A stretch of 64,000 nt of DNA from Alphaproteobacteria bacterium. GTDB lineage: Bacteria; Pseudomonadota; Alphaproteobacteria; RF32; CAG-239. Positions 126 to 20,101 of this stretch are shown here, piece after piece (positions within the stretch are counted from its first letter, which is position 1; each line of letters starts with the position of its first letter). The stretch lies in assembly GCA_028706255.1 (NCBI GenBank), contig JAQWBS010000005.1, positions 35,673 through 99,672 of the forward strand, read 5' to 3'. The translations under genes were made by a program, and so were the position numbers. The notes beneath the pieces are model-generated. The model was not told where the DNA came from and did no database searches. It worked only from the letters and a program-made list of their open reading frames with translations.

Positions 126-233
126 GTCTTTTGCTTTGATTGGATTGCCACGCTTCGCTCGCAATGACAGCACTCAATTGTCATATTCGGGTTGTTTTTT
201 TTTTTAGTCATATTCGGGCTTGACCCGAATATC
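126..233 (-). repeat. Composite palindromic repeat: GTCATTGCGAGCGAAGCGTGGCAATCCAATCAAAG core plus an ATATTCGGG-N5-CCCGAATAT hairpin with GTCATATTCGGG half-sites; inverted copy of the element at 19797-19913
   Basis: Direct comparison: 126-168 is the reverse complement of the 19474/19859 core; 180-233 is the reverse complement of 19797-19852. Confidence 0.75.
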
Positions 234-238
234 CATAT

Positions 239-13200: not shown

Positions 13201-13491
13201 AAAGAAGCAAAAGCTTTCGGAAATGTGTTGGGAATTTCGGCAAATGGTTATTATGATTATGACACAAGCCGTATAAAACTGGGAGGAATGCTTGCCCCTG
13301 CTTATAGTATCAATCGTTTTCTGGCAGGAATTCCACTGGTTGGAAGATTGCTTTCAGGAAAAGATGGCACAGTCTTTGCCGCGAGCTATCGTGTTTCTGG
13401 GGATGCGGAAAACCCTAAAATTAAAGTTGATCCACTTTCGGCAATTAGCCCTAATTCTATTAAAGAGATGTTTTCTAAAGATGAAAATTAA
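10294..13491 (+). CDS. AsmA-family / DUF3971 large envelope protein (AsmA_2 C-terminal domain)
   Basis: N-terminal TM; 1065 aa; C-terminal region (…GISANGYYDYD…GGMLAPAYSINRFLAGIPLVGRLLSGKDGTVFAASYRVSGDAENPKIKVDPLS…) matches the conserved tail of AsmA/YhdP-like proteins. Confidence 0.6.
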   Translation: MGMLNKKKYLARRITDYVGTAIFAFLLIFIWQLYRSPIPLPFLKPYIIKALNHDSQEYAVAVESVNLELVRSIQPIKIIAREVEYKNNKGSISINAPRIEISFSVRALIRGIISPSSVVFDSPSVSVFTNYGETDKSSEMSLNEKKIGYYFDTFNRFIERFNSQDLSYPESYINYIAIQNGDFEFHEVDLNRNWNFVKANYVFDRDREDINIGIDGNLMMGEEAVPLDFDLKYMPKVEKVDIDLAFSNFLPSKAVEAFISEQEQAAIYKVDVPINGKLDILVDFKKVLQNKNNISKSLDTAVEDFKFRFEGDDGKIAFSDNEAFNYDIKAFSLSGEVDSGLNEIKISDAQFDMGEKSTSLSLYISGFKNLLLKSSMKDLKITLKTEVEKMNFSELPRYWPRYIAEDAWIWVKEGIYEGEIKDAAFAFEFAYDAKQKGLAFKNLSGEGKVENASLNYLEGMPHAHKVFGKATFYNDKIDIKIDKGESVGNKLTDGRVILYDLDKYDNFIDIQLSATSSIPDALKLIDSPPLEFASEMGIKPDDISGKAEINLKLDFELKKTLTPEEVKVAVQSKLSDVTIKNIIKDKIIKGDRLDLSVNNKEMVVRGDVVIDELPMNLVWQKPFMNNKYLNKYELSFDLNTHMKKKLGFDFDILKAPYFIGDTKIKANVLEVKTNKFKVNFASDLLENEINYAFLGFLKEKGVVGSLNFSVDVENDKVKKINEIKLTKEDFEVEASMDLNKKGEIETIDITKVKGPKTSAKAKVMMSKVNGQELIKVNISGLSYDISNLFEINIKSNEKTDLDPEEYLKQMPNTDINIAVDSLWTNKEVPVTNFAGNMKIRNKIGIDEIKMVGNFAYVKDSNFRFEYLPREQGEHLINVTSSDAGKALKILRLYDYMNGGDLKISALKEKDGKIVGHAKIRSFNILNTSLLAKVVSMASLTGIINTLSGEGIAFSHLDVPFEFDGSVIEMKEAKAFGNVLGISANGYYDYDTSRIKLGGMLAPAYSINRFLAGIPLVGRLLSGKDGTVFAASYRVSGDAENPKIKVDPLSAISPNSIKEMFSKDEN

Positions 13492-13954
13492 AAGTCTTAA
13501 AATTGGACTGGATTTTCATGGAGTCATTAATGAGCATTATAAATTTTTTGAAGAATTTACGTCGCTTGCTTTAGCGAGAGGGCATAAAATTTTTGTCATT
13601 AGTGGAGGAAAAGGGGCTGTCTTGAAAAAAGAGTTGGCAGAGCACAACATTAAATATAGTGAGCTTTATTCTCTTTATGATTATTTTTCAGCATTAGGTT
13701 TGGTTGAAACGTTATCGGATGGCAGGTTTTATGTTGATGAAACTTTGTGGAACAAGCAAAAGGCAATTTATTGTTTGGAACAAAAAATTGATGTCCATAT
13801 TGATGATAGCATAGGATATTTACATAATTTTGAAACAGATTACTATCATTGCAATCCAGAGCAAAAGAAATGTTTTTGCTCTTGCCAAAAAGAAGTTCCA
13901 TTCTTTGTTAATCCGCACTTAGCCCTTCAGGAGATTGAAAAGACCTTTGGTTAA
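13481..13954 (+). CDS. Hypothetical protein (158 aa); start overlaps the stop of the AsmA-family gene
   Basis: ATG at 13481 overlaps the upstream stop (13489-13491); weak HAD-like LDFHGVI / VHIDDS motifs; the ORF-track extension to 13292 overlaps the previous gene and is rejected. Confidence 0.4.
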   Translation: MKIKSLKIGLDFHGVINEHYKFFEEFTSLALARGHKIFVISGGKGAVLKKELAEHNIKYSELYSLYDYFSALGLVETLSDGRFYVDETLWNKQKAIYCLEQKIDVHIDDSIGYLHNFETDYYHCNPEQKKCFCSCQKEVPFFVNPHLALQEIEKTFG

Positions 13955-13959
13955 TGACC

Positions 13960-14190
13960 TCAATCAAAGGTCTTTTTTGCATAATCACGATATGCTCTGA
14001 GCAATTTTTCAAGCTTAATTGGGTTGAGTTCTTTCTTCTTTAATTTTGCAATATCTTTCGTTTTATTCAGACAAACTGCATTGAGCCATTTTTTATCATA
14101 GCTTATGTTTTGTTGTAAAAAATTATATCTATTTTCAAGTTCGTTGAGGGTTTCTGAAGCTCCCTCAAGATAAATTTTATTGTTTCTCAT
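13960..14190 (-). CDS. Hypothetical 76-aa protein co-transcribed downstream of the phage repressor
   Basis: 3-nt gap from the repressor stop; charged, helical; no family recognised. Confidence 0.4.
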   Translation of the reverse strand: MRNNKIYLEGASETLNELENRYNFLQQNISYDKKWLNAVCLNKTKDIAKLKKKELNPIKLEKLLRAYRDYAKKTFD

Positions 14191-14193
14191 TTT

Positions 14194-14802
14194 TTACTGA
14201 CTTACCCATAAAATTCGATTGATTTCTTTGATTTTGCTAATTTCTAAGCTAATTTCTTTTTGTTTATCATTTAGCTCTATAATTTCGATTGTGCGAGCTG
14301 TTCTGCGAATAAATTCACCGATAAAAATGTTTCCATCAGAATATTTCACAAGGATTCGGTCTTTGCGTCTGGTTTCAGAATTTTGAGAGAGAATTAGAAT
14401 TGAGCCAATGTCATAAATGAGGGTTTCACAATCAATTTCTATGGCATAAAGCTTGTCTTTACTGTCTGGAAATTTGATTTTTTTTAGATAAGTCTTATCC
14501 TCTAAAAGCTCAGCATTTTCTTCAAGTTTTGAGAGCTCAACATAAGGAATATTGTGCGCTAAACTCTTGGGAGAAGATGTTTTTCCTAAGTTATAAAACT
14601 CTTCAAAACTGATGTGACAAGATTCGATAATTTTTTGAATACTATCTAAAGAAGGGAATCTTTTCTTTCCATCAGGTCTTGTTCTTTTGCTTTTATTGAA
14701 GGTTGTGGAGTCAAGCCCTGCTTTTTTTGCGAGTCCGGAAGCTGATAAACCATTTGCTTTGGCTAAGTTATCAACAGCGTCCCAAATTTTTTCGTGATTC
14801 AT
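14194..14802 (-). CDS. Phage CI/LexA-like repressor (N-terminal XRE HTH, C-terminal S24-like peptidase domain)
   Basis: HTH segment LSASGLAKKAGLDSTTFNKSKR; C-terminal β-rich domain with a LexA-like layout (…IGSILIL…LVKYSDG…); divergent to the + strand phage genes. Confidence 0.7.
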   Translation of the reverse strand: MNHEKIWDAVDNLAKANGLSASGLAKKAGLDSTTFNKSKRTRPDGKKRFPSLDSIQKIIESCHISFEEFYNLGKTSSPKSLAHNIPYVELSKLEENAELLEDKTYLKKIKFPDSKDKLYAIEIDCETLIYDIGSILILSQNSETRRKDRILVKYSDGNIFIGEFIRRTARTIEIIELNDKQKEISLEISKIKEINRILWVSQ

Positions 14803-14967
14803 GTTATCTCCTTAAAATCAAGCTATTAACGATTATGTCACTCATTATATATCAAATATAAATAGGAATCAAATCTTTTTTTGATTGAAATTCCTACAAC
14901 CTTATGTATAACCTCATACAGTTAATAAACTATTAATAATATTATACAACTAAAAGGAGTTTTGCTA
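14803..14967. promoter_or_regulatory. Divergent switch region between the repressor and the early operon (candidate operators and promoters)
   Basis: AT-rich 165 bp; inverted repeat AATCAAA-N7-TTTGATT; AAGGAG SD 8 nt before ATG 14968. Confidence 0.4.
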
Positions 14968-15297
14968 ATGGGGAGAATGTATGAGCCTTTTGAGAATGCA
15001 GAAGAGGTTTGGTTCTGGTTTTGCAGTAGCCTTATCAGCCAAGAAGACGGTTGGCGTGCCATGGGTGATTATGGGGGAAAAGAACGTTGTTGCGAAATCA
15101 ATGATATCTATCGAATTATTAAGAGGTTGAAGCTTTGTCACGAAACATCTAATCGTCATTTAAGAGTTGCTCTGAAATGGGGTAAGGAACTGACACCGCC
15201 ATATTATGCTAAAAGAGCAAAGAGAAGCGAAGTGAGAATCTGGGGGGAATTTATCACGGCTTTAGAAACTGCTTTGAAGAAAAAAGGAATTATATGA
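14968..15297 (+). CDS. Hypothetical phage early protein (110 aa, Trp/Cys-rich)
   Basis: Good SD (AAGGAG) then ATG; first gene of the operon divergent from the repressor; no family recognised. Confidence 0.5.
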   Translation: MGRMYEPFENAEEVWFWFCSSLISQEDGWRAMGDYGGKERCCEINDIYRIIKRLKLCHETSNRHLRVALKWGKELTPPYYAKRAKRSEVRIWGEFITALETALKKKGII

Positions 15298-15704
15298 AAA
15301 TGAATAATGCTATAAGCCAAGAAATTTCAGAATATTATGTTGTGTTTATTGATGAAACAAGCCTGTGGTGGTTGAGGTTTTTGAAAAAAGGCTTTCGCCA
15401 TTGTTATTTGCTTTTTCAGATTGATGAGGGAATGACATGGGTTGAAGCGAATCCTATGTCTAATCGTTTTTTCTTTTGTACCTATTCGTTTTGTGAAAAA
15501 GTTGATTATATTGCGGAGCTTAAAAAACAAATGAACTGTGAAATAATTTTACAAAAAGTTGAAAATGTTGGTTTAAAAATCGCACCGCTTAGTTTTTTTT
15601 CTTGTGTGGAATTTGTCAAGAGAAGCTTGGGGATTCATAGCTTTTGGACAATCACACCTTATCAGTTGTATAAAAAATTAAAGATTGTAGGAAAAAAGTC
15701 TTGA
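15294..15704 (+). CDS. Hypothetical phage early protein (136 aa)
   Basis: Start overlaps the previous stop (ATGA), so the two are translationally coupled; no family recognised. Confidence 0.5.
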   Translation: MKMNNAISQEISEYYVVFIDETSLWWLRFLKKGFRHCYLLFQIDEGMTWVEANPMSNRFFFCTYSFCEKVDYIAELKKQMNCEIILQKVENVGLKIAPLSFFSCVEFVKRSLGIHSFWTITPYQLYKKLKIVGKKS

Positions 15705-15767
15705 CAAATGGTTTTTTATATGTTACACCCTTAATTGTCACTAGGGAGTAGTGTATCTAAAATTTAT

Positions 15768-15800
15768 AAAGCTCAGTTGTTTAACTGGGCTTTATTTTTT
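15768..15800 (+). terminator. Rho-independent terminator between the early genes and the tail genes
   Basis: AAAGCTCAGTT-GTTT-AACTGGGCTTT stem followed by ATTTTTTT. Confidence 0.5.
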
Positions 15801-15867
15801 TAGAAAAATGGTGAAGTGGTTTTTAGTCTTTCTTTTGGAAAGGCTATTTTTTTTATTTAGGTGTTTT

Positions 15868-16476
15868 ATGAGCGAGAAGAAAATTAAAACAATTAAGGCT
15901 TTGAAAACACGTTTGAAGAAAACTTTAAGTATTTGCTCTAAAGCTTTATTTAAGCTTGGAGTTGATGGCATTGTTTCCTTTGAAGAAGGAACAGCAGAGG
16001 CGGACATTTCCAACAATCTGTTTGGGTTAATCCGTGATGGGCTTCTTTCTTCATATCCTTGGAGTTTTGCCACTGCACAAAAAAGATTGCCACGCCTTTC
16101 TGAAAATCCGTTAGCAGACTATAAATATGCTTATCTGTTGCCAAACGATTATTTGCGAATGATATCCGCAGGTTCAGGCACAAGAGGGCTTGGGTTAGAG
16201 TATCGCATTCAGAAAAATATGCTACATACTAACGCAGAAGAGGTGGTAATTACTTATATTTTTCGTCCGAAAGAGGAAGATTTTCCTCCGTTTTTTTGCG
16301 ATGTTTTGACCACAAAATTGGCGTCAGAATTTTGTTTGCCGCTCACGGAAGATAATGCCAAAGCAAATATTTTAATTAAAAGGGCTGAAGAAGAAATTAA
16401 AAATGCTCGATTAATTGATTCTCAACAAGCAACCCCGAAAAAGTTTGAAGATTTTACCTTGGTTGAGGTGAGATGA
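15868..16476 (+). CDS. Podovirus tail tubular protein A (T7 gp11-like)
   Basis: Translation aligns by eye along its length with T7 gp11: W-[ST]-F block, DYL-x-[LM]-[MI]-S block, …FPPFFCDVLTTKLASEF… versus …MPECFRYWIVTKASRQF…, and an acidic EEE block. Confidence 0.6.
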   Translation: MSEKKIKTIKALKTRLKKTLSICSKALFKLGVDGIVSFEEGTAEADISNNLFGLIRDGLLSSYPWSFATAQKRLPRLSENPLADYKYAYLLPNDYLRMISAGSGTRGLGLEYRIQKNMLHTNAEEVVITYIFRPKEEDFPPFFCDVLTTKLASEFCLPLTEDNAKANILIKRAEEEIKNARLIDSQQATPKKFEDFTLVEVR

Positions 16477-18374
16477 TGGCGAATATGTTTTCAGTTAAAA
16501 CAAATTTCACAGCAGGGCAAGTTTCTGAAAAAATTTTTGGACGAGGAGATTTAGGGGTTTATGAAAATGGGGCAAGAACTTTGGAAAATGTCATCATTCA
16601 ACCAACAGGCGGTGTTTCAAGAAGAAAAGGCTTGAAATTAGTTGATGAAGTTGAGGCAAAAGCAAAGCTTATTCCATTTGAGTTTAACGTGAATCAGACT
16701 TATCTTTTGTGCTTGTTTAACAACAAAATGCGTGTTTATAAAGATGATATGTTGATTGCTGAAATTGCCACGCCTTGGGCAAATGACCAACTTAATCAAC
16801 TAAACTGGACACAAAGTGCGGATACGCTTTTGGTGGTTCATCCTGAAGTTGCACCTAAGAAAATTACCAGAAATCTTGATGAGGTTTGGAAGGTGGAAGA
16901 TTGGGAATATTACACAAAAGATGGCATGGTTTTCTGCCCTTATTATAACTTTTATCAAAACAGAAATAATTTGCAGTCAAGTGGCACAAGTGGAACAGTG
17001 ACCTTAACAGCAACGGAAGATGTTTTCAGCACAGGCTATGTGGGGGTAATGATAAAACTTGGAACAGGGCTGGTAAAGGTGACGGAATATCTCACCACAA
17101 AGACAGTGAAGGCTTTGGTTTTAAAAAATGTGACAACAACAAGCACAAATGAATGGGAAGAACAGTCTTTTTCACCACTCAGAGGTTATCCAAGGTCGAT
17201 TACTTTTCATCAAGACAGGCTTGTGATTGGTGGCTCTAAAGGCTTGCCCAATCGATTGTGGTTTTCTAAGTCGTCAGATTTATTTAATTTTGACTTAGGC
17301 ACAGGGCTTGATGATGAGGCAATTGAATTTGCCATTTTGTCAGACCAAATCAATGCTATCTGCAATCTCGTTTCCAGCCGTCATTTGCTGATTTTTACCA
17401 CAGGGGCAGAATGGATGTTGTCTGCGGAAACTTTAACGCCAACCAGCTTAGTCTTGAGTTGTCAAACCAATACGGGAAGTTATGGGAAGAATAATCTCTT
17501 ACCGCAACAGATTAATGGGGCGACAGTGTTTGTTTCTAAAAATGGCAAGCAATTGCAAGAGTTTTTATATACAGACACCGAACAGGCATATTTAAGCAAA
17601 GACTTAAATTTGTTGGCAGATAATATTTTACAACAACCGCTTTCAATTGCTTTTTCACAATATGAAAATGTGGTTTATTTGGTGTTGGAAGACGGCACGG
17701 TTTCGGCTTTAACAACTTATCGAACGGAAGAGGTTAATGCTTGGAGCAAGCTTAAAACTTCAGGAGAATTTGTTTCTGTTGCCGTTATTGGGGAAGAAAT
17801 TTATTTTGCTGTGGCAAGAGGAGAAAGATTCTTTATTGAAAGATTTAGCGACACTTTTTTTGCGGATTGTGCAGTTGAATTAACAAGTGAGGATAATCAA
17901 AGCCATTGGGAGGGATTAAGTGTTTACGAAGGGCAAGAGGTTTGTGTTTCCTCAAAGGGGTATAATCTTGGGAAATATATTGTTCAAGATGAGGCAATTG
18001 ACTTGTTTGAGGAAACATCAAAGATTTATGTCGGACTTCCATATGAACATCTGATTGAACCTATGCCTTATATGATGGAAAATATCAAACCAATGCCGGT
18101 TAAAGGACTGCGTGTGGTGAATGCTTTATTTAGATTAATCAACAGCAAGTCTTTTAGGCTTAGATTGGCAGATGAATATGTGACTATTCCTCTAAAGAGA
18201 ATGTATAAAGACCAAATTTTAGATGCTCCTGCAAATAATTTTTCCGGAGACATTAATGTGCGTTCTTTGAAGTGGCTCAGAGAGATGAACTTGCCCATGT
18301 GGAGCATTAAAAGTGATGAACCTGTGGCGTTTAATCTGCTTTTGGCAGCAATGGAAGTGAAAATTAAAATTTAA
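16473..18374 (+). CDS. Podovirus tail tubular protein B (T7 gp12-like)
   Basis: Start overlaps the gp11-like stop (ATGATGG); N-terminal GGVSRRKGLKL and PNRLWFSKSSDLFNF blocks resemble the T7 gp12 motifs GLQKRP and RNRLGF…FNFYP; position immediately after the gp11-like gene. Confidence 0.5.
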   Translation: MMANMFSVKTNFTAGQVSEKIFGRGDLGVYENGARTLENVIIQPTGGVSRRKGLKLVDEVEAKAKLIPFEFNVNQTYLLCLFNNKMRVYKDDMLIAEIATPWANDQLNQLNWTQSADTLLVVHPEVAPKKITRNLDEVWKVEDWEYYTKDGMVFCPYYNFYQNRNNLQSSGTSGTVTLTATEDVFSTGYVGVMIKLGTGLVKVTEYLTTKTVKALVLKNVTTTSTNEWEEQSFSPLRGYPRSITFHQDRLVIGGSKGLPNRLWFSKSSDLFNFDLGTGLDDEAIEFAILSDQINAICNLVSSRHLLIFTTGAEWMLSAETLTPTSLVLSCQTNTGSYGKNNLLPQQINGATVFVSKNGKQLQEFLYTDTEQAYLSKDLNLLADNILQQPLSIAFSQYENVVYLVLEDGTVSALTTYRTEEVNAWSKLKTSGEFVSVAVIGEEIYFAVARGERFFIERFSDTFFADCAVELTSEDNQSHWEGLSVYEGQEVCVSSKGYNLGKYIVQDEAIDLFEETSKIYVGLPYEHLIEPMPYMMENIKPMPVKGLRVVNALFRLINSKSFRLRLADEYVTIPLKRMYKDQILDAPANNFSGDINVRSLKWLREMNLPMWSIKSDEPVAFNLLLAAMEVKIKI

Positions 18375-18389
18375 CGAAAGGAGGAAAAT

Positions 18390-18770
18390 ATGGGAGCAAC
18401 GGCTTTAACAGTAGCTGCTGTGGCAGCTTTTGCAAATCAAAAACATACTGAAAGAAAAACTAGAAGTGCAGAGTTGAAAAGTATACGAAGGCAACAGGCA
18501 ATTAATGAGGCGAAAAAGAAGAATATTTTAGAAGGACAATTGGCAGCAAGAAGAGCCAAAGTTGGAAGTTTAGGAATTTCAACTTCAGGGTCAAATGTTG
18601 CTGTTCAAAATAGATTGGTGGGAGATGCTCAGCGTGAAATTTCTTATGATAATTGGGGCTATCAGGATAAATATGCTCAAGTCTTTAATAATTATCAAGA
18701 CAAAATAAGGAGCGAAGCTATTGATTATGCCCCAAAAGTTTATAATTATGTTGAGAAAATGATAAAGTAG
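18390..18770 (+). CDS. Hypothetical phage protein (126 aa); an internal-virion-protein-like slot after tail tubular B
   Basis: Strong SD (AAGGAGGAAAATATG); positional analogy to T7 gene 13; no sequence family recognised. Confidence 0.45.
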   Translation: MGATALTVAAVAAFANQKHTERKTRSAELKSIRRQQAINEAKKKNILEGQLAARRAKVGSLGISTSGSNVAVQNRLVGDAQREISYDNWGYQDKYAQVFNNYQDKIRSEAIDYAPKVYNYVEKMIK

Positions 18771-18780
18771 GAGAATTGGA

Positions 18781-18975
18781 ATGCCACGAAAAAAAGAAAC
18801 TTATTTGGAAAAAAGAAAAAAAGCTTATCTGAAAGAAATTCCAATTGAAGAGCAATTAGATGCTATCTTAAAAGCTTTTGATATGGTTTTACAGGAAGAT
18901 GGCGTTTTGCCTTATGAACTAATTGATGTGATTGAAAAATGGCAGAAGATTAAGTTTAAATTTCCCAAAGAATGA
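18781..18975 (+). CDS. Hypothetical small protein (64 aa)
   Basis: SD GGAGAATTGGAATG; Lys-rich; no family recognised. Confidence 0.4.
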   Translation: MPRKKETYLEKRKKAYLKEIPIEEQLDAILKAFDMVLQEDGVLPYELIDVIEKWQKIKFKFPKE

Positions 18976-18985
18976 TGCAAAAAAA

Positions 18986-19013
18986 GTGACCCAAAGAGAA
19001 GTCTTTGGGTCAC
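18986..19013. terminator. Bidirectional hairpin terminator between convergent genes
   Basis: GTGACCCAAAG-AGAAGT-CTTTGGGTCAC, a perfect 11-bp stem; A-run on one side and T-rich run on the other, which gives a strong T-run for the minus-strand gene 19049-19294. Confidence 0.5.
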
Positions 19014-19048
19014 GTTTGTAAAATGAAAAAACAAAAATTTAGGAAAAA

Positions 19049-19294
19049 CTATTTTTTCTTATTTTTCTTTTCCAAGTCTTTCAAAATTTCAGGCTTATAA
19101 ATTTCGAGAATTTTATAAACACCAATTAATCCAACTAAAATATAGATTAAATTAACGATGAAACCTAAGCCAATAATATCAAACATATGATGTAAAATAT
19201 CAACATCAAGAAGTCCAAGAACGAGGTAATATGATGTGGCAAAGACGCAGATGAGGTTGCCAAATTTTTTAATGAGTTCAATAATTTTATCCAT
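19049..19294 (-). CDS. Small two-TM membrane protein with a highly charged C-terminus (holin-like)
   Basis: 81 aa; two hydrophobic helices; KDLEKKNKKK tail; convergent with the phage structural genes. Confidence 0.4.
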   Translation of the reverse strand: MDKIIELIKKFGNLICVFATSYYLVLGLLDVDILHHMFDIIGLGFIVNLIYILVGLIGVYKILEIYKPEILKDLEKKNKKK

Positions 19295-19404: not shown

Positions 19405-19915
19405 TCTCGGTCATTGCAATGTTTTTCTGTCATTGCGAGCGAAGTGTGAGATAATAGAACATTCTATCATCTTTGTCATTGCGAGCGAAGCGTGGCAATC
19501 CAATCAAAGCATGAATCCAAATAGCAATATCTCTCCATTCAGGTAGAGCCTCAGTCGAGATGACAGGAGTAAAGATAATCCCTAAAAAGCAATATCTCTC
19601 CGTTCGCTTCGCTCAGTCGAGATGACAGGGGCTTGAGAGGACATAAAAGAATTGTCATTTCGAAATTGACAACGTCAATGAGAAATCTTGCCTTATCGTC
19701 ATTCCATCACTTCCTTTATCATTTCCCATACTTCTCTGTCATTCCCAACGTCCTCCTCGTTGTCATTCCCGAGAAATCGGGAATCCACCTTTATGGATAT
19801 TCGGGTCAAGCCCGAATATGACAACTTAAAAATTAGCCCGAATATGACCCCTATGTATTGTCATTGCGAGCGAAGCGTGGCAATCCAATCAAAGAATGAA
19901 TCTGAATAGCAATTT
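19405..19915. repeat. Cluster of short palindromic repeats of the GTCATT family (GTCATTGCGAGCGAAG x3, GTCATTCCCGAGAAATCGGGAATCC hairpin, AGCAATATCTCTCC…TCAGTCGAGATGACAGG x2, ATATTCGGG-N5-CCCGAATAT)
   Basis: Repeated motifs visible in both orientations; 8-bp stem with GAAA loop at 19765-19784; no long ORF with sensible composition. Confidence 0.75.
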
Positions 19916-20101
19916 TTACATTTTTATTTTTTTACTGATTGACATCTTATTTTTTTAGTCTTACAATTCGATATATGGCGAATTGACGAATTGGATTTTA
20001 AAAGTTGATAAAATTGAGTTGGAGTTAAGGTTAGATTAGAAACAGAAATAAGATTAGATTAGAAAAACAGTAAGTTTATTAAATGTTGTAAGGAGGGGTA
20101 A

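Follow-up and report, generated by a model that had tools for sequence, protein, structure and literature searches.

Why a stretch of about 500 bp just upstream of a metal-resistance operon should be packed with short palindromic repeats is the question raised by this locus, which lies in a 64-kb stretch of DNA from an uncultured alphaproteobacterial host (hereafter the window, meaning the whole of the sequence analysed). Approximately 12 units, full or cut-down, are found between positions 19410 and 19913; every one of them opens with (T/C)GTCAT, and they fall into four stem types, which we call A to D. A preliminary description of the region had taken it for small interspersed repeats of the MITE or REP kind that form hairpins, and all of the motifs it listed are indeed present. 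We consider it probable that non-coding repeats of the REP type, which form hairpins and belong to the superfamily tagged with CGTC or TGTC, make up the region as a clustered mosaic, and the earlier reading is sustained by the published features of that superfamily that are found here as well as by the recurrence of the units 19 kb away and in other genomes. The locus itself is ordinary selfish repeat DNA of an already described and very widespread kind; an odd-looking 0.5-kb stretch is explained in this way, which for the locus matters little, and the interest lies mainly in the superfamily: how broadly it occurs, that phages carry it, and that its heads stutter in a polar manner.

Repeat units and their folding

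The words GTCAT/ATGAC occur 12 times in 511 nt, against 0.98 expected from the window's own rate (Poisson 7e-10), and the 20-mer pattern GTCATTGCGAGCGAAG(C/T)GTG has four matches in the window, against 0.01 expected from shuffles, at 19429, 19475 and 19860 on the forward strand and at 168->149 on the reverse strand. The units share one design, namely an unpaired 5' YGTC tag, a stem opening with two A-T pairs, either a short loop or the tip GCGAAGC, and CCA as the tail. Decayed and truncated copies make up half of the array (Table 1). Truncated heads reading GTCATT(C/G)C are found at 19410, 19698 and 19738, and two or three truncated type-B heads fall within 19698-19746, as part of a stutter with periods of about 20, 20 and 24 nt that runs into the full type-B unit. 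The hairpin of that unit, ATTCCCGA-GAAA-TCGGGAAT at 19765-19784, is perfect and reads ATTCCCGAGAAATCGGGAAT. The two type-A long forms are 95% identical to each other, and with the second of them the array ends, 26 nt upstream of the -35 box of arsR. The type-C unit at 19795-19822 is a perfect hairpin unit of 28 nt; this unit, its truncated copy at 19837-19848 and the second cluster at 142-234 had gone unmentioned in the preliminary description.

Table 1. Repeat units and neighbouring features, in window coordinates
Feature	Position	Strand	Remarks
Second cluster	142..234	-	begins 4 nt past the stop codon of an M48/TPR peptidase gene
Truncated type-A head	19410..19421	+	GTCATTGCAATG; tag and collapsed stem
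Truncated type-A unit	19429..19448	+	GTCATTGCGAGCGAAGTGTG; one mismatch; without the closing GCAATCC
Type-A long form	19473..19528	+	56 nt; contains the full unit 19475-19501
Full type-A unit	19475..19501	+	T-GTC ATTGC GA GCGAAGC GTG GCAAT CCA
Type-D copy 1	19523..19567	-	reverse complement CCTGTCATCTCGACTGAGG...GGAGAGATATTGCT; interior replaced, without GCGAAGC; unit at about 19564->19523
Type-D copy 2	19588..19629	-	reverse complement CCTGTC ATCTC GACTGA GCGAAGC GAACG GAGAT ATTGCT
Near-palindrome	19652..19672	+	TTGTCATTTCGAAATTGACAA; degenerate tag-to-tag unit
Type-B head stutter	19698..19761	+	GTCATTCC, decayed ATCATTTCC, GTCATTCCC; C/T-rich spacer after each
Full type-B unit	19761..19788	+	TGTC ATTCCCGA GAAA TCGGGAAT CCA; stem 8 bp, loop 4 nt
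Full type-C unit	19795..19822	-	reverse complement TGTC ATATTCGGG CTTGA CCCGAATAT CCA; stem 9 bp, loop 5 nt
Truncated type-C head	19837..19848	-	reverse complement GTCATATTCGGG; 26 nt 5' of the full type-C unit on its own strand
Type-A long form	19858..19913	+	contains the full unit 19860-19886; ends after AGCAAT
arsR promoter-like site	19939..19967	+	TTGACA-17-TACAAT, then operator-like sequence; context, not repeat; kept in relative L166

Inverted pairs of units with their tags outside were shown by folding to form one clasped double hairpin. The type-B unit on the forward strand and the type-C unit on the reverse strand face each other in this manner, and their tags, together with the flanks, pair as GTTGTC/GACAAC. 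Folding as RNA had been put forward in the preliminary description as a check on its reading; the 96 nt of the B-C dimer stretch (19755-19850) fold as RNA with a free energy of -33.2 kcal/mol and a z of -5.5. As single-stranded DNA, units B and C alone reach -7.7 and -8.2 kcal/mol (z of -3.8 and -4.8, respectively), and a lone type-A unit does no better than its shuffles, possibly because nearest-neighbour folding does not model the GCGAAGC mini-hairpin. The oligonucleotide d(GCGAAGC) is well known as an unusually stable DNA mini-hairpin.

A tags-outside (HH) dimer is also formed by the type-A unit at 19475, as left arm, and the type-D units. In the predicted single-stranded DNA fold the type-A unit pairs with 19588-19626 of type D through GAGCGAAGCG/CGCTTCGCTC and GTCAT/ATGAC, and this pairing encloses the other type-D copy (19523-19567). 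Types A and D have the tag, the AT-first stem and the heptamer GCGAAGC in common, and their stems (ATTGC/GCAAT in A, ATCTC/GAGAT in D) differ by two compensated pairs. Both AGCAAT...GATGAC copies that the preliminary description had listed (AGCAATATCTCTCC(A/G)TTC...CTCAGTCGAGATGACAGG; 19523-19567 and 19588-19629) are present, but the inverted GAGCGAAGCG core that it had attributed to the two of them is held by type-D copy 2 only, while the interior of copy 1 is unrelated.

Contrary to the expectation that ORF callers would place spurious proteins here, nothing is called between 19294 and 20102 in two gene-call sets. A mechanical 73-aa ORF (19688-19909) was considered and rejected as a real protein, as it has no Pfam match and is uncalled in both sets. 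Repeat-derived ORFs occur in other genomes (ORF cluster L010/L045/L100/L107), and the locus may serve as a warning to annotators to make no ORF or CRISPR calls in such stretches.

The second cluster and the island junction

The second cluster sits between convergent genes and reads, in the order of the reverse strand, as a full type-C unit (234->207), a type-C head (191->180) and a type-A unit (168->142). Its 27-mer and 28-mer are identical, with 0 mismatches, to the copies at 19.8 kb, the spacers differ, and the same composite is thereby found at two loci 19 kb apart. These two clusters with their identical units are the copies found in the 64 kb, and 1.7 kb of further DNA beyond the window hold no units. 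The motifs are not unique to the main array, given the 142-234 cluster and the copies in other genomes. For identical dispersed copies such as these, gene conversion could be an alternative to transposition. A public short-read contig of the source organism (19,293 bp) has one end inside unit C, at window position 208, and the other at a calculated position of about 19,500, which is the end of the type-A unit. As its ends fall at both repeat clusters, both clusters break assemblies, and the repeats explain why short-read assembly stops at the two sites.

The surroundings of the main array, which lies between a phage-derived block and a regulator of the ArsR family followed by a heavy-metal P-type ATPase, agree with the position that the preliminary description had given it. 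Housekeeping genes occupy the DNA to the left of 13.5 kb (RNase E/G, amidase, PBP1A, RF-2 and a YhdP-like protein). The phage-derived block extends from 13.5 to 19.3 kb and includes a repressor-like gene and homologues of the T7-type tail tubular proteins A and B (phrog_394 at 6e-47 and phrog_376 at 1e-140). To the right of the array, the regulator and the ATPase are joined by genes for a flavin reductase, rubredoxin, HU and ProRS. The array itself lies between divergently transcribed genes, upstream of both neighbours. A terminator-like hairpin at 18986-19013 is the only such site in the area and is distinct from the units. There are no tRNA genes in the window, and a search for plasmid relatives of the whole 521-nt region returned none.

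From this position it had been suggested that the array marks a recombination hotspot at the edge of the island, and this suggestion our results do not support. Two relatives, L166 and L168, whose ATPases are 71% and 58% identical to that of the window, have the same order of genes as the window (phage module, a reverse gene of 79-81 aa, then arsR and the ATPase gene), but the spacer at the junction measures just 196-197 bp, and their sequences, of 22 and 16 kb, are free of GTCAT units. L166 can be aligned with the window over the left part of the spacer and over the promoter and operator stretch of arsR, and the array lies in between. Because relatives share the junction and lack the units, the junction is older than the array, and their short, repeat-free spacer makes the array a gain of about 0.5 kb that is specific to this lineage. 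Nor are there any units at the left edge of the island. The array would thus appear from these alignments to be neither the agent nor the marker of the island boundary. Target-site duplications, which had likewise been proposed as something to look for, could not be recognised at the array ends when the flanks were compared with L166, where the similarity is of an A/T-rich kind only; of the features of a MITE, then, the dimers have the inverted ends, and no duplication is recognisable in the A/T-rich flanks against this relative. Side effects of the array may include the formation of hairpins or cruciforms, a changed spacing upstream of the arsR promoter, and the supply of homology for recombination.

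Distribution, head stutter and mobilisation

In a collection of species-representative genomes, at least 120 genome stretches, spread over a dozen or more phyla, contain the exact 20-mer GTCATTGCGAGCGAAGYGTG; this breadth is well beyond the five phyla from which CGTC REPs were reported in 2013 (PMC3733652). Among the matches listed, and going by the titles of their records, Chloroflexota account for about 33 loci, Pseudomonadota for about 29 and Bacteroidota for about 23, and the other hosts are Spirochaetota, Patescibacteria, Bacillota, Nitrospirota, Desulfobacterota, Campylobacterota, Acidobacteriota, Actinomycetota, Elusimicrobiota, Hydrogenedentota and Dadabacteria. In most listed loci the 20-mer is the left arm of an imperfect tags-outside hairpin of 70-110 nt, of the form GTCATTGCGAG...GCAATCY-(variable)-RGATTGC...CTCGCAATGAC. 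When 255 type-A arms from other genomes were compared, the base before GTC was T in 149 and C in 97, and the stretch between GAG and GCAAT came in 97 variants; the tails read CTC, CCA or CCC. Canonical units with an 8-bp stem and a GAAA loop are also present in 10 of the at least 120 listed loci, and a Treponema locus has a 9-bp unit with the CTTGA loop of unit C and a compensated stem.

The element is carried by mobile DNA as well. On a megaplasmid of Novosphingobium resinovorum it occurs at 38 places, and there it forms a perfect tags-outside dimer whose tags are CGTC and whose tails are CCAG. It is also found on plasmids of Psychrobacter and Tolypothrix, in prophages of Helicobacter canis and in gut phage contigs, with cultured isolates among the hosts, and one group of tailed phages commonly carries the type-A unit. 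No bacterial Rfam family matches the type-A dimers from other genomes, and a string search of the published literature for GTCATTGCGAG and its variants returned chance primer matches only. A metagenome scan with GCGTGGCAATCCAATCAAAG gave five loci, four of which (50-54% G+C) carry related elements in other organisms, while the fifth (43% G+C) is without a GTCAT unit; as GCGTGGCAATCCAATCAAAG matches in other organisms, the AATCAAAG extension is not specific to this lineage.

The truncated copies are distributed in a polar manner. Counting as a truncated head any tag with its 5' half-stem that lies within 70 nt of a full unit, in the 120 listed loci and the window, we found 24 heads upstream and 3 downstream of full units (24 of 27 on the 5' side), whereas truncated tails showed the opposite bias, with 1 upstream and 6 downstream. 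Arrays of heads have periods of 18-26 nt, up to 11 copies, and pyrimidine-rich spacers (0.72 vs 0.58); they involve three stem types and occur in Beta- and Alphaproteobacteria, Bacteroidota and Chloroflexota. The 5'-side polarity holds for each of the three head arrays of the window. At one orthologous site in phage contigs that are about 90% identical, two contigs have one copy and a third has four in tandem, and head arrays therefore expand and contract quickly. It is possible that such arrays of truncated heads are the footprint of the mobilising mechanism.

Among the window ORFs of at least 110 aa that were searched against Pfam, none has a transposase-like domain, and neither the 64 kb nor the recurrent neighbours of units in the 120 listed loci yielded a mobilising enzyme. 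Clustering of ORFs from these loci returned only generic families as recurrent, e.g. ABC transporters, and the families that recur in 39 viral-contig loci are phage structural proteins. To our knowledge, the CGTC-type REPs are the one large REP superfamily without a known mobilising enzyme. The lack of a transposase in the searched window ORFs and in the 120 listed loci agrees with the conclusion of 2013 that CGTC elements have no dedicated transposase (PMC3733652).

The model we favour would have dimers or composites spreading as single-stranded DNA hairpins, with an enzyme supplied in trans, for which analogues might be the RAYT proteins of GTAG REPs or those recombinases of the IS110 type whose target is dRS3. 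The cluster would then have grown locally by tandem duplication of the tag-proximal half (the head stutter), older copies would have decayed in place, and the array would carry no host function by design. The breadth of distribution, the density in one phage group and the polar head stutter across phyla and stem types offer handles for finding the enzyme. A bolder proposal, and an unlikely one in our estimate, is that the YGTC hairpins, including those of the GTCATTGCGAG...GCAATC form, are one pan-bacterial system served by a single, very widespread enzyme, either phage-borne or a housekeeping enzyme of single-stranded DNA, whose iterative or abortive action would leave the stutters as its footprint. 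If this were true, the array of the window would be a readable record of the mobilising mechanism.

Rival readings and comparison with known systems

The superfamily to which we assign the units was delineated by Di Nocera, De Gregorio and Rocco in 2013, with families CGTC-1 to CGTC-4 (PMC3733652). In their survey (PMC3733652), a CGTC REP has an unpaired tag that reads CGTC or often TGTC, a CCTC variant being also allowed, a stem of 8-9 bp with A-T in the first and second position, a loop of 4-5 nt, and a short unpaired 3' tail that is mostly CCA; tags-outside inverted dimers are the main arrangement, the elements are described there as having no associated transposase and as residing mostly in Alphaproteobacteria, clusters are called rare, most REPs are placed at the 3' ends of genes and argued to be transcribed, and CGTC-1 is equated with the dRS3 repeat of Neisseria. 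The consensus of dRS3 is ATTCCC-N8-GGGAAT (PMC1797815). In the window, the tag reads TGTC in units A, B and D and in the C unit at 19822, and AGTC in the C unit at 207; CCA follows units A, B and C; the B(+)/C(-) and A(+)/D(-) pairs are tags-outside dimers; and no transposase is linked to the units, either in the searched window ORFs or in the 120 listed loci. Stems of the published length with A-T first pairs are found in B (ATTCCCGA/TCGGGAAT, 8 bp) and C (ATATTCGGG/CCCGAATAT, 9 bp), whose loops (GAAA and CTTGA) are also of the published size, whereas A and D have 5 perfect pairs only, around an interior of 12-16 nt. Going by their predicted structure, units B and C appear to show each published feature exactly, and unit B would fit CGTC-1, its letters being those of the dRS3 consensus. 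Types A and D, which keep the tag, the AT-first stem and, in A, the CCA tail, and whose bodies lie beyond the stated limits for stem and loop, are treated here as a variant type within the superfamily.

Other explanations for so many short dyad-symmetric repeats within a few hundred bases have to be weighed against this assignment. Degeneration of a CRISPR array, an array of integron attC sites, or low complexity arisen by chance have practically no probability left and we regard them as excluded: Tandem Repeats Finder found no regular periodic array inside the region, so that its structure is not CRISPR-like, the units have no fixed period and come in four types and both orientations, no cas or intI gene is present among the Pfam-searched ORFs, no RYYYAAC/GTTRRRY core sites exist in the region, and shuffles account for 0.01 of the 4 pattern matches seen. 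The preliminary description, which had set CRISPR aside, was right to do so, there being neither a periodic array nor cas domains. The reading of the array, or of its B-C core, as the gene of a small RNA kept for the regulation of targets is more substantial, even though we find it quite improbable. Positions 19748-19847 of the forward strand align end to end with the Rfam family FtrB (RF02748) at 34 bits and an E-value of about 5e-4, and the B-C dimer is very stable as RNA. FtrB is a 115-nt RNA of Francisella tularensis that was seen on Northern blots with a probe containing GTCATTCCCGCGTAGGCGGGAATCTC, a dRS3-type unit (PMC3091763), and its expression in Francisella means that dimers of this sort can be stable transcripts. 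The consensus of the FtrB model is itself a dRS3-type hairpin followed by a UCAAG-loop hairpin, and the B-C dimer, which aligns with it over the whole length, has the same GUCAUUCCCG...CGGGAAUC hairpin, short U-rich spacer and UCAAG-loop hairpin. However, the score is half of the 66-bit gathering score, and the similarity is confined to the two REP-like hairpins and short spacers. Across the whole window Rfam gave nothing at gathering thresholds, and at E<1 only this sub-threshold FtrB. Moreover, the DNA just upstream of 19748 offers no good match to a promoter, nothing resembling a terminator comes after the stretch, relatives are without the element at this locus, and deletion of ftrB gave no phenotype in published work (PMC3091763).

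The two remaining readings concern the array as a product of island traffic or as a servant of the host. If the units were attachment or recombination sites left by the integration or rearrangement of a phage-like island, the array would be the scar of that traffic, and it does touch the right end of the phage-derived block, the type-A unit is common in one tailed-phage group, and a parallel could be drawn with dRS3, on which the recombinase of filamentous prophages acts in Neisseria. Against this, two relatives have this junction and no units at all, the left end of the island is likewise without a unit, the searched window ORFs contain nothing recognisable as an integrase or IS110-type gene, and the head genes of the island were lost by an internal deletion far from the array, so we would give this explanation only a small probability. 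The hairpins might alternatively be structural elements selected by the host, such as stabilisers of mRNA 3' ends, terminators or insulators, and not selfish repeats. The second cluster, just past a stop codon and between convergent genes, is in the classic REP position, which is that of most REPs in the 2013 survey, where they are argued to be transcribed (PMC3733652). The main array, in contrast, is upstream of both neighbouring genes and hence is not a 3' UTR, no unit is followed by a U-tract, the sole terminator-like site nearby is the different hairpin at 18986-19013, half of the array is truncated or decayed, and relatives do without it. As an account of the locus this reading thus has only a slight chance of being right, and a role as terminator or stabiliser is plausible for the second cluster only.

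A mosaic of selfish CGTC/TGTC-tagged REPs remains our preferred reading, and by analogy the array may be compared to a small NIME array of Neisseria or to a BIME of E. coli. It resembles the former in the ATTCCC-N8-GGGAAT unit at 19765-19784 and in being a dense intergenic mosaic with unrelated spacers that varies between relatives, but it has one complete dRS3-type unit only, does not alternate with RS elements of 50-150 bp as a NIME does, and has no Piv/IS110-type recombinase or filamentous prophage nearby. With the GTAG REPs, their REPIN-RAYT systems and the BIMEs of E. coli it shares a tag joined to a hairpin, inverted doublets that form long hairpins, an extragenic location, mosaic clusters and, by the matches in other genomes, a high copy number, whereas the tag is YGTC here in place of GT[AG]G, the stems begin with A/T and do not have the G/C-rich base found there, and no Y1 transposase is present in the 64-kb window or beside units in the 120 listed loci. 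The Rickettsia RPE-4 and RPE-6 elements and the CGTC-4 clusters of Wolbachia belong to the same superfamily by the assignment made in the survey and also reside in low-G+C Alphaproteobacteria (PMC3733652); the Wolbachia elements are clustered, as here, while Rickettsia RPEs often lie in frame inside genes and all units of the window are intergenic. There remains the comparison with the CGTC REPs as a whole. The 5-bp perfect stem of types A and D, around a 12-16 nt interior with GCGAAGC, falls outside their limits, and the main array is, unlike them, clustered and placed between divergent genes, with a 3'-end position at the second cluster only. In spite of these differences, the array has in common with them the tag, the AT-first stems, the CCA tail, the HH dimers, the lack of a transposase, an alphaproteobacterial host, and the coexistence of several families in one genome.

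Truncated heads and possibly exchangeable tips

On their 5' side, the full YGTC-tagged units of these REP-type arrays have 1-11 truncated copies in the same orientation, a polar arrangement that we call head stutter. Each copy comprises the tag and the 5' half-stem together with a pyrimidine-rich spacer, and the period is 18-26 nt. In the window and the 120 genome loci among the matches listed, truncated heads were found upstream of the full unit in 24 cases and downstream in 3. The pattern is common to three stem types and to several phyla, and its copy number varies even among phage contigs about 90% identical to each other; it is not mentioned in the sections consulted of the 2013 survey of CGTC REPs (PMC3733652). 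In groundwater metagenome contigs, a conserved frame, GTCATTGCGAG...CGTGGCAATCCAATCAAAG, holds differing mini-hairpins (e.g. CCCCAGCAGGGG and CGCATATACTGAAAGCG) in place of CGAAG, which points to a modular, swappable tip.

Locations of the features described (L numbers, loci and contigs outside the window)
Feature	Location	Strand
Head stutter, window	19410-19475; 19698-19762	
Head stutter, window	19848->19822	-
Head stutter, window, second cluster	180->207	+
Head stutter, other loci	L100:1566-1860; L089:1097-1160; L117:5285-5330; L156:6560-6680; L012, L086, L098, L113	
Frame with replaced tip	L161:3392-3490; L164:2300-2400; L163; L165	
Repeat-rich tailed-phage group	about 25 of the 39 viral contigs L122-L160; L021	
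T7-like structural module	window 13481-19294; L166:1-9426; L168:1-9434	
FtrB-like stretch	window 19748-19847	+

Phages and the module beside arsR-ATPase

Type-A heads reach 8-19 per ~10 kb in one group of related tailed phages with an SPP1-like portal and 52-58% G+C, where many intergenic gaps are occupied by them. Such a density of REP-type repeats is unusual in phage genomes, and the type-A element could be using these phages, which include a prophage found in a Chloroflexia MAG, as vehicles.

In three alphaproteobacterial assemblies (the window and the relatives L166 and L168), a compact T7-like structural module comprising terminase, portal, scaffold, capsid, tail tubular A and nozzle protein lies directly upstream of arsR-ATPase; portal, scaffold and capsid have been lost from the window copy. 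Compared with the window, the nozzle protein of the two relatives is 70% and 58% identical, in step with the ATPase (71% and 58%). This looks like a podovirus-like element long co-inherited at one chromosomal site, either domesticated or GTA-like, or else like repeated site-specific integration. In the window, the interval that separates the arsR operator-like sequence from the start codon of arsR also carries two tandem TAAG(G/A)TTAGATTAGAAA copies, 23 nt apart (20026-20065), in a stretch of ~100 nt missing in both relatives.

Assembly breaks and likeness to FtrB

The repeats fragment assemblies of the source organism, as the public short-read contig SRR22315502_349908 ends at units of both clusters: within unit C of the second cluster (window 208) and, by calculation from its length, at about window 19500, at the main array's type-A unit.

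The Rfam family FtrB (RF02748), an sRNA reported as Francisella-specific in the original paper (PMC3091763), apparently combines a CGTC/dRS3-type hairpin with another REP-like one whose loop is UCAAG, which suggests that this sRNA derived from a REP dimer.
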